Below are positions 27,215-44,601 of a stretch of 64,000 nt of DNA, one piece after another. The stretch covers positions 434,001 through 498,000 of the forward strand of contig CP142737.1 of assembly GCA_036630325.1 (NCBI GenBank), given 5' to 3'. The first letter of the stretch is position 1. The number at the start of each line of letters is the position of its first letter. The position numbers were made by a program, and so were the translations under genes. The stretch is from Vairimorpha necatrix. Its lineage: Eukaryota. A model generated the notes under the pieces. That model saw nothing but the letters and a program-made list of their open reading frames with translations. It had not been told where the DNA came from and did no database searches.

Positions 27215-29622
27215 TTTTATTTACCCTCATAAAAATTTTATTTATATTTTACATGTTTATTTACACTACAAGAAAACATTGTGAATTAACAAACTTAAAC
27301 AATTGAATCAACAAATTTCTTAAAACAAACATACGAGTATTAAGAAAATATTTTGATAACTTTTTACTTATAAGGAATAATTAGAATGTTCAAAGTCGAT
27401 TTTCCATGTCATATAAATCTTATTGTTGGAATGAAAACATAGGTTTATTTATTATAAAATTTTTAAAGAACAACATGTCAAATATCTTTGAATGGCCACT
27501 GCAGGATTTGACATGTGTTACACTTCCTATACTAACTTACCTTAAAAGCTTAACGTGATTTCGACTTGCCATAACCGTTTTTCCCATATCGAGCATCACT
27601 TCAAATGAATTGAATCGCAGTTCATCAACCGTTCCTTTTTCTTCCCATTTTGGTTTGAATTTTTTTCTAAACGGTAGAATTATATAATACCAAACTCTAT
27701 TTCCCACCTTAATGGCATCCTGTTACCGGAATTAGCTTTTTACTAGGGTCGTTTTCTCGTCTGTAAACATCCAAGTTTTTAATCGCTTGCTCCTGAAACT
27801 CCTTCTTATCTTTTGGGAGATGCATTCCCTCTTTATATCTATCCTATTTGAAGCTCTTCCTGTTAAGAATTCTTGGTGCAAACCCCATTGCCCTATGATA
27901 TGATTGCATATAGACTCTGACTACTTTAGGAACTCCTTTTACCCAATCAAATTTCCCCAAATTCTGTAACATTCCTTAATTTTATGGATAAAGTTCTATT
28001 AACCCTCTCAACAAGCCCCGTAGTTGTAGGTTTATTAGGTGAGCCATGTTCCCTTGAATTTTTTTGGTCTTCGCATATTCCTCACATATATAATTTTTGA
28101 ATTCTTTGCCATTATGAAAAAAATAGATTTTTTCATACCATACTTCCTGATTATATTTTTATCTACAAAATAAATTACCGTGTTCTTGTCTTTTGTATAA
28201 ATCGGCACCGCCTCAGCAACTTTCGAAAAGTGGTCAATCATTGTTATAAGAATTTATATCCTTGCTCGTTTTCTCTCAAGGGCCCTAATATGACTATTTC
28301 CTAAATTTCTCCTATTGTCTTTGATACTAATACCACCATATCTCCGAATTTCCTCAGAGGCTTTTCTTTTTAACACGTTTCACATTTATCTACGTAATTT
28401 TTATGTCTCTGCCCAAATTCTTCTAATTATATTTTCATCCAATATTATATTTCATATTCTGTTTTGATCCATGCCCTGATAAATCATGATAAAATTTTAA
28501 TAATACTAACCTCCTATCTGTTTTGATTTTTTTCTTTTGTATTGAATTTATTTCTAAAACAGTCTCCTCATGTTTTTTAAATTCTCTGCTTAGGCGATTT
28601 GTATAGTTTGATGGTTCCGTAATGTATTTAATATCGAAATCATATTCTTGTAGCAGTAATGACCATCTAGCAAACCTAGCTTTTACATTAATAGACTTAA
28701 ACAAATATTCCAAAGCCTGATGATCCGTTTTTAATGTAAATTTTCCTAATAATAGATATTCTCTGAGGTATTGAATCAATTTTATAACTCTAGCAGCTCT
28801 TGTTCAGTAGTAAAATGGTTTTTAATAAACTTTAAGCAATAGTTGTATTGCCCTGTGGTATTACGACCACATGTAAAATTCCATTATTCCCAAAATGGAA
28901 TTTCTTAAATATTTTAAAAAAAATTGTTTTTCTCCCCAACAAAAAGGAAAAAGAGATGCAGACAAAGGACACAAACAATAAACGATTTATTTTTAAAAAA
29001 AGCCCAAGGAATCTATTATAAGTAGCTTACCAGAAGCCTACTATCAACGAGGGTTCATCCCTCGTGACCACCTCAAGTTGAATTCAACGAGGAAAACTCA
29101 TATCAAAGATCAAAAGAAAGAAAAAGAACATACAGAATTTGAAAAAATATACAAGGAACTGGAGTTAAGAATAAAGTAAAAATTTATAACATTTATGAGA
29201 TCCAACAAGATTTAACCATAAATCAACTCCAAAAATTTGAGATGTTAGCTAAAGCAAATGATTAGAATGACGAACAAATGGCTTTGATTTACATGGTTTT
29301 CATGCACGATCCAAGAAAGGATTATTTACCATCAGATTCTTATGTTGCATTAAGAATGTCACTGTTAAATTTTATTTAGCCACCGGAACAAAAAAGACGT
29401 GCTATACATAAATTAGATAATACAAGCCAAATATGTTATTTTAGTATCAAAGAATATTTGAAACAATCGAGGAAATACTTAACAGTTATTCATATTATAA
29501 TGATCTAAAAAAGAGAAGCTCTGCATAAAATGAAAGAAGTGTTTTTAAAGGGACTAGGAGATTTCACACATTTAGAATTAACAAGACAAAATATGATCAG
29601 TAAGGAAATCTATAAAATTTAT

Positions 29623-29857
29623 TGTCAAGGGACAGCTCTTCAGTGGTCCTCAGATGGCTCTGGAAACTAGAGAATACCATTAAGTAGATATTCTCCACCT
29701 TTGTATTATTCATGTTTTTGGCGGGGAAATAGACCAGATTTCCCGCCCATAAATATAAAAGAAAATCATTCTCATAAGGGTATGAAGATGAGAAAGATAA
29801 AATTACAATTTAATAGTAAACCTTCTTTACAGACTGTTGGACCAACAACAGTCCACA
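29623..29857 (-). mobile_element. Solo LTR (type H) inserted in gag of element B
   Basis: TG..CA termini; TSD TTTAT both sides; 5' hairpin GACTGTTG-N6-CAACAGTC; CCCC-ATG frame open to the LTR end. Confidence 0.85.
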
Positions 29858-41814: not shown

Positions 41815-44601
41815 AGGTTGGTGTCTATATACTATATAAAAAATTAACCCCTTTCGCTTGTATACTCCCTCAACATGGCACTCGGTATGGAACTGAAAAT
41901 GAAAGGATTAATATTCAAAATTGTTAAGACCAAGGCAGACTTGAAATATTGGAGTTACAGTATAACCCCCATTATATTATCCAAGACAAGGAGAAGATTG
42001 AAATCTTCTTATGATTTTTGAGTGGGAGGCCCAAATTCTACTTACACAAATAGAAAAATCTATAAATGTAATATGAAGCAACTAAAAGGGGAATTGAAAA
42101 AAATGACAGAGAAAAATTACACTTTTTAAAGTACTAGAAGCTAGACAAAAGTTGAATGAACCAGTGAGAGAATGACTAGCAAGAGTTATAACTATTGCTT
42201 ATGATTCGGGCATTAGGAAGAAATCGCCAATTAAATAATTTTAAGGACATTTTATTATAGAAGGATTTGTAACATTTAGAGACTACTTTTCCAACCAGTC
42301 TCTATTCGAGGATTACTCTAATAAGATAGAATTATTAAGGAGGAAAGAATACTTAATGAAAAAAGGAAAATTTGGAAATAAAAAATCCATTGGGTTAGCA
42401 TTAAGCAAAAAATAATCAACAAATATGTTTCAGAAGAGAACAAAATATGTACTTAAAAAATTATAATTAACAATCTACAAACACCATTAGGAGAAGTCAA
42501 GACAACGGTAGTATGTATTGCAGGCGATAAAATATATGCAATAGTAGATATTAGAAGTAATTGTAATTTAATTAGTTGGAAGCTGGTAGAAGAAAAGATA
42601 TTTCTTAACAACAAAATAAAAGTGACTACTAAAACTAATATCTTTGGACAAGAAAACACTTTAACAGAGTAAGTAGAAATAACTTCACCTTATATAACAT
42701 CCAAATAACGATCAACTTCAACATTATGACCAATATTCAGTTCATTTTTTTGATTGAACCCCTAACTATTGTAAATGTAAAAAAATTGAGACATGAGATA
42801 GGTGAACTTGAGAAGAAGGGTTGTAAAGTATTTAAAGTAAACCATCAGAAGGTTCTAATAAAATAATAGGCACAATAAATACAAAAGAAGTAACCTGAGT
42901 CAATGTTAAAAAAAAGAAATATACCAAATGGGGCATAAAAGGTAACTGAAAAGCAATAACAAAGCTATTAAATTCAAGTTATATAAAAAGACAACCTAGC
43001 CATGATGCAATCATGCCCCCAGTAAAAACCCCCGATGAAAATATAGAATATCTGTTACAACAGATGGTTAAATAAAATCGTAGAGGACAATTTTTACTCG
43101 ATCTCAAAAATAAATGAAACTATCGATATGACACAGAGCAAAAAGATTTTCACAGTATTAAACCTAACGGATAAATTTTTCCAAATTAAAATTGATTCTA
43201 AGGATAAATTTAAAACATCCCTTTATTTAAGAACAATTTGTATCAAAGTACTAAAATGCCATAAGGTTTAAAGAATTTACCTGCAATTTTTCATAAGATA
43301 ATGGACAACATCTTATGCGATTCATGAAAACTAAATAAAAGGCCTATATAGACGACATAATTGTATATGGCGATCCCGAAAAGAGCTGATCAGAGCTTTT
43401 TAGAAGTTCTACAATAAGTTATAGGAAAAAAATGCATTATAAATGTACAAAAGTAAACTTTTGCCATCTAAGATCAACGAGTCAACTCAAAGACCAAAAA
43501 GAGAACATCAGAGAAAGATTTTAGATTTTAAAGTACCAAAAATAAGAAAAACCTACAAAAAAAACTAGGATTTGCTAATTACTATACAAAATATATCGCA
43601 CGGCTAGCAACAGTTTCGCAACCATTATATGATGCACTTGATAATCTTTAAAACAAAGATTAATTATAATGGAATGAAGAATGTGAGACGCATTTTGCAA
43701 CATAAAACTATAGATAAATTCTGTCATAGCAACAAACGTAACAGACTTTACAAAACTTATTGTTCTTACAATAATTACTGCTATAACGGAATCAAGTGCG
43801 GCTTTTAAGAATTTAAAGTTGGTGAACTTATGACTATTGATTGGGGATCTTAAAAAAACTGCCTGAAGCGAATAAAATACTTATTAACTATGAAGGAATA
43901 TCTAGCAATGGCTTGGGGAATAAAGCACTATAAACTATATCCTTGGACTTGGTTTAAAACTAATAATCAAATACACTGCCCACACAGTTCCTAAACTAAA
44001 CATATATTTTATAATATGAAATTAGAACATAGGGTAAAAACTTTAAAGCTTTGTATGATATTCCAAATATCATAAAAATAATTTATAAATATTTCCCGCC
44101 AAATTCTTCCAGTTTTCCCTCCAACATTTATTTAATAATTTTATCCGGAGAGGGGTACGGAGTAATGGAAAGAAGATCTTATATTAATAATAAAAATATT
44201 TTACATACTTTCCTAAGTGGTGGATACCACACTTTGGTTCCCCGATACACTACAAGAAAGGCACAAAAATCATTGAGGCCGATGTATCAAATAGAACAGA
44301 TGAGCATTCAAACCGAACTAACGATTTGAAGTGCCCAAAAGATGAGCTCATCGATTCTAAAGGTACACAGTATTATTAAGTAAATAACACAAAAACAAAG
44401 AACATATCGCCAGTCGAAGATAGGCCAGCGCTTCCTGAGGATGCATATAAAAAGTTACAAACTATGGTGGAAGAGATACAATGCTTCATGCTATAAAAAG
44501 AAAATATCAATGGCCCAAATAAAACGAATCAATTGTTCAATATCTTAAACGTCGTAAACCTTGTCAATGTAATCAATAAAAGACACAAGGAGAAAAAAAA
44601 T
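41815..44601 (+). mobile_element. Heavily decayed Ty3/Gypsy element related to the 63-bp-LTR element
   Basis: ..CTCAACA-TGGCACTCGGTATGGAA junction near 41870-41892 matches the LTR/PBS at 55468; RT remnants 43.0-43.4 kb; RNase H remnants (EYLAMAWGIKHY); limits approximate. Confidence 0.75.
44054..44231 (+). mobile_element. Solo LTR (type G)
   Basis: TSD CTTTG; 5' hairpin TATGATATT-CCA-AATATCATA (start reads TA, not TG); ends TACCACA; internal GGGGTACG-ATG frame. Confidence 0.8.

Follow-up and report, generated by a model that had tools for sequence, protein, structure and literature searches.

The window analyzed here comprises 64,000 nt of the forward strand of Vairimorpha necatrix (assembly GCA_036630325.1, contig CP142737.1, positions 434,001 to 498,000). 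It carries Ty3/gypsy elements. Family A, L1 (decayed), D4, D8, and M have the order gag-PR-RT-RNase H-IN between direct repeats, and L2 to L7 are solo LTRs without an interior. TG..CA ends and a 5-bp target site duplication (TSD) are typical of these LTRs, with the exception of L6, which starts with TA. The duplications were perfect for L2 to L7, A3, D4, and D8 and matched at four of five positions for L1; no matching duplication was found for the full family A element. An Rfam search of the window returned rRNA genes only, with no match at the LTRs, and the window contained no tRNA genes.

The original prediction was that eight LTR types in the window begin with a terminal hairpin at the U3 tip. 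We located all eight palindromes on the first bases of Ty3/gypsy LTRs, and TG..CA ends, TSDs, and empty sites confirmed these positions as LTR starts. The empty sites, paralogous copies without the insertion, came from contigs of two sequencing runs. Their joints corresponded to exactly the LTR plus 5 bp for L7, L3, and L5 and were approximate for L1, L2, and L6.

Tip hairpins of the LTRs in the window

L1 lies on the plus strand. Its 222-bp 5' LTR (28854..29075) opens from nucleotide (nt) 1 with a hairpin of a 6-bp stem and a 6-nt loop (28854-28871), and a single base separates the LTR from a 12-nt palindrome (29077-29088). The 227-bp 3' LTR (36375..36601, plus strand) is 84% identical to the 5' LTR, is directly preceded by the purine tract GGGGGCAGAA, and has a decayed tip hairpin (TATGGT..ACCACA). 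The L1 empty site joined 28848 to 36610.

The hairpin of the solo LTR L7 (29623..29857, minus strand, 235 bp, TSD ATAAA on its own strand) occupies 29832-29853 of a tip string at 29832-29857 and starts at nt 4-5; the empty-site joint ran from 29616 to 29857, with 240 positions skipped. L2 (33741..34024, plus strand, 284 bp, TSD ACATC) has its tip hairpin at 33741-33757, and L3 (34072..34375, minus strand, 304 bp, TSD GTATC) at 34357-34375, the latter with a single sense-strand G.U pair and a joint from 34066 to 34376 (309 skipped). L4 (34606..35314, plus strand, TSD GTGAT) measures 347 bp of its own, has L5 inserted within it, and begins with an 11-bp stem (34606-34629, plus strand). L5 itself (34841..35197, minus strand, 357 bp, TSD GTTAC) has its hairpin at 35174-35197; its joint ran from 34835 to 35198 (362 skipped), and record 10 of run X2 connects 34834 with 35199. 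L6 (44054..44231, plus strand, 178 bp, TSD CTTTG) has a tip hairpin at 44054-44074 and a 5-bp hairpin at its 3' end, and its empty-site evidence consisted of loose ends at 44231 and a joint from 44052 to 44253. We also considered 33741 (plus)/34375 (minus) and 34606 (plus)/35197 (minus) as paired ends of single, MITE-like elements with terminal inverted repeats. This was rejected, since the separate duplications (ACATC, GTATC, GTGAT, and GTTAC) and separate empty sites identify four LTRs that face in opposite directions.

The full family A element (16584..20781, minus strand) is bounded by identical 213-bp LTRs (16584-16796 and 20569-20781), whose tip hairpins (16777-16796 and 20762-20781, minus strand) start at nt 2. 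Its primer site contains the 12-nt palindrome TATGACGTCATA (20556-20567, minus strand), and its polypurine tract (PPT) is GGTGGGGGAAAC. A family A solo LTR (58823..59034, minus strand, TSD GTTAG) has the same tip hairpin at 59015-59034. As had been proposed, the hairpin sits just 3' of the PPT: in both A and L1, a purine-rich tract directly precedes it.

The tRNA-primed elements of the window had been described as lacking this structure, and our results agree. Element M (27424..38544, minus strand), the host of the L1 insertion, has 98/99-bp LTRs (27424-27522 and 38447-38544) with ATT-TGGCGACAACG as its primer binding site (PBS); D8 (51433..55530, minus strand) has 63-bp LTRs and the PBS TGGCACCCGG. 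No tip hairpin was found in either. D4 (45134..49031, minus strand, 123-bp LTRs, PBS TGGCGACAAC) lacks a tip hairpin in its first 30 nt and forms only an imperfect 54-nt structure from nt 7.

Chance expectation and stem geometry

On both strands of the window, 66 of 6,871 TG sites (about 1%) start a perfect hairpin with a stem of at least 6 and a loop of 2 to 12. The eight tips fell at percentiles 0.001 to 0.089 among 3,000 random TG windows. Their folding also surpassed that of almost all shuffled versions (z of −1.8 to −4.9): of 200 dinucleotide shuffles per tip, 14, 5, 3, 1, 0, 1, 1, and 1 folded equally well. For the tips of the 99-, 123-, and 63-bp LTRs, the corresponding counts were 159, 200, and 200. 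The eight LTR-tip hairpins are not due to chance, with the caveat that the solo LTRs were possibly noticed through their palindromes, an ascertainment bias. We searched every tip-like hairpin in the window for a TSD and found CA plus a matching 5-mer in 18 of 86 cases. Such a match alone is weak evidence, as 16% of random TG sites also give one, and we therefore claim no further solo LTRs.

To the window families we added relatives from outside it (L001, L057, L009, L010, L013, L034, and L110). Other loci (L002-L008, L011, L012, L015-L016, L018-L028, L030-L033, L035-L037, L039-L056, L058-L077, L079-L092, and L112-L118) were left out of the tips for lack of an LTR pair, truncation at a contig end, redundancy with an included family, or ambiguity of the PPT. 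Among 13 hairpin tips, pairing begins at nt 1 in seven and at nt 2 in five, and the terminal TG itself lies within the stem in 12. Stems measure 5 to 11 bp and loops 2 to 12 nt, a spread that favors nucleic acid folding over a fixed dimeric protein site. The stem adjoins a visible PPT in seven elements (A, L1, L001, L013, L057, L009, and L010).

The claim that the stems differ in sequence while keeping their pairing was borne out. Each of LTR nt 4 to 9 shows two to six pair types across the 13 tips, and arms taken from different families are pairable at only 43 to 47%. Between A and L001, pol identity is 48%, the LTRs are unalignable, and a 17-nt sequence at the primer site is the same in both; the two tips have the same offset, yet different stems and loops. 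The non-Watson-Crick pairs inside intact stems (L3 and, by eye, L110 and L034) are all G.U on the sense strand, an argument that comprises three pairs only. At the LTR 3' end, a hairpin within 1 to 3 nt was found for A (p = 0.01), L2 (p = 0.004), and L6 (p = 0.056), and L1 also ends in a hairpin; in L3, L4, L5, and L7, a 3'-end hairpin was absent or not significant.

Lineage, primer site, and LTR length

A reverse transcriptase (RT) tree groups A and L1 with L001, L057, L009, and L010. Polyprotein matches came from Vairimorpha necatrix, Nosema granulosis, Pancytospora, and Enteropsectra. In this lineage, a perfect 12-nt palindrome one base past the LTR replaces the tRNA-type TGG primer site. 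For A, L1, and L001, the LTR end is known, and one base and then the palindrome follow it; L057, L009, and L010 have the same arrangement of CA, one base, and a 12-nt palindrome. The tip hairpin is clear in five of the six members and weak in L009. In L001, L057, and L010 (weakly in L009), it starts at nt 1-2, directly 3' of the polypurine tract.

These data partly support, within the RT-tree group, the earlier claim that the hairpin tracks with PBS-less elements, although among the eight window families the primer site is known only for A and L1, the other six being solo LTRs. The claim fails as a rule, since L013 and L034, which have tRNA-type primer sites, carry strong tip hairpins too. The link is a tendency. 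LTR length is the better separator of the microsporidian hairpin cases: the hairpin was present in 11 of 11 microsporidian LTRs of at least 176 bp and in none of the five of at most 123 bp (58 to 123 bp). Because these five replicate without it, the hairpin is not universally required. The tip hairpin is a real, lineage-linked feature of this microsporidian genome. It is best read as belonging to a Ty3/gypsy lineage whose center is in microsporidia, and it occurs sporadically in tRNA-primed relatives.

Possible roles at the PPT/U3 boundary

Our literature search, which covered mainly openly accessible journals, returned no paper on a U3-tip hairpin or on microsporidian LTR structure. We compared the hairpin with better-known systems. 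In Ty1, CYC5 and CYC3 mediate 5'-3' cyclization by long-range pairing, and the U5-IR at the U5/PBS border serves minus-strand initiation. The Ty1 and Ty3 (bipartite PBS) systems involve the 5' end of U3 in reverse transcription, as the tip hairpin would. However, Ty3 and Ty1 act through long-range pairing with a tRNA or the 5' region, whereas the microsporidian motif is a local hairpin. The U5-IR stem-loop adjoins the primer binding site in retroviruses and Tf1 (PMC3601003); like the tip hairpin, it is a short LTR hairpin that neighbors a primer site on the first-copied side. It differs in lying at the U5/PBS border rather than the PPT/U3 border, and A, L1, and L2 add a hairpin near the U5 end. 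In Sirevirus/copia elements, inverted repeats bracket the PPT/LTR junction and have been proposed to guide RNase H in producing the plus-strand primer (PMC2829016). That system shares a precisely placed self-complementarity at the PPT/LTR boundary and a structure conserved across divergent elements. Its left arm, however, borders the PPT upstream and its right arm lies inside the LTR, with the PPT in the loop, whereas in the microsporidian tips the LTR contains both arms and the PPT lies beyond it. PPT-U3 pairing that would enclose the hairpin was not enriched in 14 elements (p = 0.055 to 0.96). Finally, the short terminal inverted repeats TG..CA of LTRs are integrase signals that pair the LTR's two far ends (PMC3601003). 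The tip hairpin also holds the terminal TG, with CA closing its 3' arm, but its complement is 2 to 12 nt away and is a closer match to the tip than the actual end of the LTR.

The function that we infer, tentatively and at a probability of roughly 40%, is an action in cis in reverse transcription at the PPT/U3 boundary. The first 17 to 26 nt of the LTR would fold, from nt 1 or 2, as a conserved stem-loop in a single strand of sense polarity, which may be genomic RNA immediately 3' of the PPT, the 5' end of plus-strand DNA, or both. The hairpin could then aid RT/RNase H in setting or using the plus-strand primer's 3' end, a choice that would define the left cDNA end. The position of the stem at the PPT, its occurrence beyond chance, pairing kept despite sequence change, the range of stem and loop sizes, the G.U pairs on the sense strand, and the Sirevirus/copia precedent argue for this role. 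Against an RNA hairpin counts the fact that the RNA is hybridized while RNase H cleaves at the PPT. A role at the DNA end fits equally well with the finding that several LTRs (A, L1, and L2) also end in a hairpin.

Such a DNA-end element would act on linear cDNA or integrated DNA, either as a site of integrase attachment made up of two inverted half-sites or as an end that can breathe into hairpins and thereby resists nucleases or end-joining. The invariant terminal TG within the stem is consistent with this, as are the 3' arm ACCACA of L1 to L4, a sequence also found at the U5 end in L2, L3, and L6, and the hairpins 1 to 3 nt from the 3' end in A, L2, and L6. We nevertheless consider it rather unlikely, given half-sites spaced 2 to 12 nt apart, arms that vary in sequence and length, a 3' arm unlike the LTR end in L4, L5, L6, and L7, the lack of significant end hairpins in L3, L4, L5, and L7, and the cost of melting a 17- to 26-bp duplex. 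The palindrome could also be a functionless by-product of fold-back (snap-back) synthesis, in which RT, at the cDNA's left end, would copy a near-terminal segment ending in CA in inverted orientation; the product would then persist for a while. Mostly perfect arms, short loops, a terminus that is always in the palindrome, and the sporadic hairpins of tRNA-primed L013 and L034 would follow from this, and in run X2 the tip of a related L6-type copy, after a PPT-like run, looks different (two contigs with 30 letters at a loose end, position 44065). This origin is unlikely, however: a simple fold-back copy would pair nt 1, which is unpaired in the RT-tree group (the L1 stem does start at nt 1), and fold-back synthesis would not be expected to end after 5 to 11 nt. 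Nor does it account for the hairpin in five to six of six members of that group or for the shared offset of A and L001 despite their divergence.

Palindromic U3 motifs are known in Sirevirus LTRs (PMC2829016; see also PMC4728375), and the restriction of the hairpin to LTRs of at least 176 bp, with its absence from five ultra-short ones, would suit a promoter or protein-binding element that is the most upstream in a minimized U3 and reached the tip through trimming. With the terminal TG in 12 of 13 stems, arm sequences not conserved between families, and variable arm spacing, we find such a regulatory palindrome improbable. The predicted 5'-3' end pairing, in which the tip would pair with the primer-site region of the RNA for circularization or minus-strand priming, was not supported. 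The family A arms GTCATA and TATGAC are halves of its primer-site palindrome, and the Ty3 bipartite PBS uses U3 sequences (PMC5371799), but L001 has the identical primer site with different arms, and L1, L009, and L010 show no arm-palindrome match. Duplexes of the tip with the 5' (U5/PBS) region had energies no better than those of shuffles (p = 0.21 for A, 0.21 for L1, 0.22 for L001, and 0.63 for L013), which also leaves Ty1-type complementarity without support; we consider this reading very improbable.

The replication of A, L1, L001, L057, L009, and L010 might be tRNA-free, with the palindrome pairing two genomic RNAs, one of which is cut and primes the other, and with the tip as a plus-strand or second-transfer signal; we offer this as a speculation with the odds well against it. 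In a comparison with Tf1/sushi self-priming, in which the PBS is complementary to the transcript's opening bases, the family A primer site matched its LTR only at the 6-nt hairpin arms, and that of L001 had no match. If true, the hairpin/palindrome scheme would be a mode of priming distinct from Tf1 self-priming.

How RNase H chooses the exact plus-strand primer end and how DNA synthesis starts without a tRNA primer site are both only partly understood. The present data point to a compact clade in which the hairpin is anchored at U3 nt 1-2, a 12-nt palindrome stands where the tRNA site would be, and a hairpin at the U5 end is frequent. The natural covariation of stems between families provides a small, defined substrate for RT/RNase H assays, and the hairpin is a practical marker for solo LTRs in microsporidian genomes.

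A transposable-element nest and its solo LTRs

Element anatomy was derived from self-comparison, domain scans and tblastn. The window (G+C of about 30%) has compact housekeeping genes in 1-12600, and microsporidian rRNA genes (SSU and LSU) occupy 59951-63907, immediately next to the transposon cluster. The interval between these two gene blocks is densely packed with nested transposable elements; the top polyprotein matches are microsporidian (51 to 61% identity). Family A occurs as a full element (16584-20781, minus strand) with two identical 213-bp LTRs and as a solo LTR (58823-59034). 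Three elements are tRNA primed: M (98/99-bp LTRs at 27424-27522 and 38447-38544, minus strand), D4 (45134-49031, 123-bp LTRs) and D8 (51433-55530, 63-bp LTRs). Element L1 (28854-36601, plus strand; 84% identity between its LTRs) has inserted into M, and the pol of L1 in turn contains a MULE DNA transposon (32032-35465) with inverted ends of about 153 bp and a transposase ORF (32416-33288, minus strand). This MULE is itself host to four solo LTRs.

Reading of the flanks showed that, besides those of family A and L1, six palindromes begin solo LTRs that have TG..CA termini and 5-bp target duplications: L7 (29623-29857, minus), L2 (33741-34024, plus), L3 (34072-34375, minus), L4 (34606-35314, plus), L5 (34841-35197, minus, within L4) and L6 (44054-44231, plus). 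The pairs 33741/34375 and 34606/35197 were considered as the two ends of single elements and were excluded by their separate target duplications.

Because a CA-plus-5-mer match by itself arises at 16% of random TG sites, empty-site evidence matters for these boundaries. Contigs of two public sequencing runs (X1 and X2) aligned to 28800-44300 included copies without the insertions, with joints that skip 240, 309 and 362 bases (L7, L3 and L5, each plus 5); for L1, L2 and L6, the empty sites in these contigs are approximate only. The MULE is missing from one X1 contig, in which 32003 is joined to 35483. Among the joints listed for 28.8 to 44.3 kb, all those bounding TG..CA insertions belong to hairpin-bearing LTRs. 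A 1221-bp insertion at 38923-40143 carries perfect inverted repeats of 27 bp at its two ends (38931-38957 and 40115-40141). Both runs contain copies without it (joint 38922>40144), and it probably represents a small DNA transposon. In X2, two contigs match L6 (44054-44065 region) from 44065 onward only; upstream of the match, they carry a PPT-like run and then different bases (30 letters compared), which suggests related L6 copies with another tip.

The RT domain of family A is broken by an in-frame TGA (18773-18775, minus), though its two LTRs are identical; its relative L001 has a single unbroken frame of 1289 codons. Coding overlaps LTRs at 16778-16800 and 20560-20655 (minus) and at 48909-48987 (minus). 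The family A pol frame crosses the PPT, and its TGA stop falls in the tip hairpin's 3' arm. In both A and D4, the gag frame opens within the 5' LTR and continues across the primer site. The full family A element is without a matching target duplication (16572-16583, minus), and the ATGACGT after its 3' LTR resembles sequence past its 5' LTR; recombination or a tandem arrangement may account for this. An IS1595/ISXO2-like DDE transposase fragment (16075-16527, minus) adjoins family A.

Tip hairpins against chance and among relatives

The original prediction placed a hairpin at the U3 tip of eight LTR families, and these hairpins exist beyond chance. Perfect hairpins (stem of at least 6, loop of 2 to 12) start at 66 of the 6871 TG sites on both strands of the window. 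The eight tips fell at percentiles of 0.001 to 0.089 among 3000 random TG windows and at z of -1.78 to -4.93 against dinucleotide shuffles (14, 5, 3, 1, 0, 1, 1 and 1 of 200 shuffles folding equally well), with the caveat that their palindromes may be what drew attention to the solo LTRs. The predicted contrast with the 63-, 99- and 123-bp tRNA-type LTRs also held: equally good folds were found in 159 (M), 200 (D4) and 200 (D8) of 200 shuffles. In D4 the only structure is an imperfect one of 54 nt that begins at nt 7 (10/200 shuffles).

Relatives' tips came from pattern scans and pol alignments, one bacterial MAG with microsporidian-like contigs and our own inspection. This gave 14 additional tips, located either from paired LTRs or, in collapsed-circle contigs, from TG after a purine tract, and 25 in total were tested with 500 shuffles each. 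Hairpins were clear in L001 (p = 0.004), L013 (0.002), L057 (0.010), L010 (0.022) and L034 (0.016), and weak or long-looped in L009 (0.086), L099 (0.056) and L110 (0.068 within 30 nt, with a 10-bp stem and a 30-nt loop visible by eye). At the same shuffle depth, L014, L111, L017, L029, L038 and L078 gave no tip hairpin.

L001 and family A share 48% pol identity and have unalignable LTRs, and the hairpin has the same offset in both, its arms and loop differing between the two. Among the 13 tips with a hairpin, nt 2 to 6 are paired in 12 to 13, and positions 4 to 9 show 2 to 6 pair types each. Since structures were predicted sequence by sequence, that all own pairs form is guaranteed by the method; what is informative is the difference in arms between families, and arms from different families are only 43 to 47% pairable. 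Where an intact stem departs from Watson-Crick pairing, the pair is G.U when read on the sense strand (L3 and, on visual inspection, L110 and L034).

Primer type and LTR length

A tree built from RT/RNase H (21 rows), with L1 on a long branch, split into two groups at a support of 92/94, which is not strong. The first comprises A, L001, L057, L1, L009, L010 and L002; the second includes every element with a TGG primer site. One base past the known LTR end, A (20556-20567), L1 (29077-29088) and L001 carry a 12-nt perfect palindrome in place of the TGG site. The same order of CA, one base and palindrome is found in L057, L009 and L010, where it would define the LTR end. The palindrome is TATGACGTCATA in A and L001, GTTGAATTCAAC in L1 and three others in L009, L010 and L057 (five sequences in total), and the 17 nt past the LTR are identical between A and L001 despite their unalignable LTRs. 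It may serve in dimerisation or as a self-complementary primer site; the window background of such palindromes is about 1 per 1.2 kb, mostly AT-only.

The hairpin had been proposed to track with the group lacking a tRNA primer site. Among first-group members with a defined tip, it is clear in 5 of 6 and weak in L009, which agrees with the proposal, but it is also clear in 2 of 13 second-group tips, the TGG-type L013 and L034. The Fisher p is about 0.01, with cases that are not independent, the first group being really one clade. The association is therefore a tendency and no rule. LTR length splits the microsporidian cases fully, with no hairpin at 58, 63, 75, 99 and 123 bp and hairpins at 176, 178, about 207, 213, 222, 235, at least 267, 284, 304, 347 and 357 bp.

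Candidate roles of the tip hairpin

The 5'-3' end pairing once suggested for the hairpin found no support: the tip paired with the U5/primer-site region no better than shuffles did. PPT-to-U3 pairing showed no enrichment either. Hairpins were also found near the LTR 3' (U5) end in A (16584-16613, minus; p = 0.01), L1 (29046-29075, plus; 0.002), L2 (33995-34024, plus; 0.004) and, marginally, L6 (44202-44231, plus; 0.056). All six TGG-type LTR 3' ends tested gave no fold (MFE 0).

Anchoring at nt 1 to 2, beside the PPT, points to the plus-strand priming step or the cDNA end, and the variation in spacing and arms speaks against a site for a dimeric protein. Together, these features favor a role in cis where the PPT meets U3, to which we give a probability of about 40%. 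The rival readings take the hairpin as a feature of the DNA end, as a by-product or as regulatory.

In the literature searched, a hairpin at the U3 tip of LTRs was not described. The nearest feature described there is an inverted repeat that straddles the border of PPT and LTR in Sireviruses and copia elements and differs in geometry from the tip hairpin (PMC2829016). Another paper explicitly urges a search for PPT-associated hairpins in further LTR elements (PMC3601003). The tip hairpin is a real, well-supported structural feature and a new variant of junction-associated inverted repeats, with a role that is only putative.
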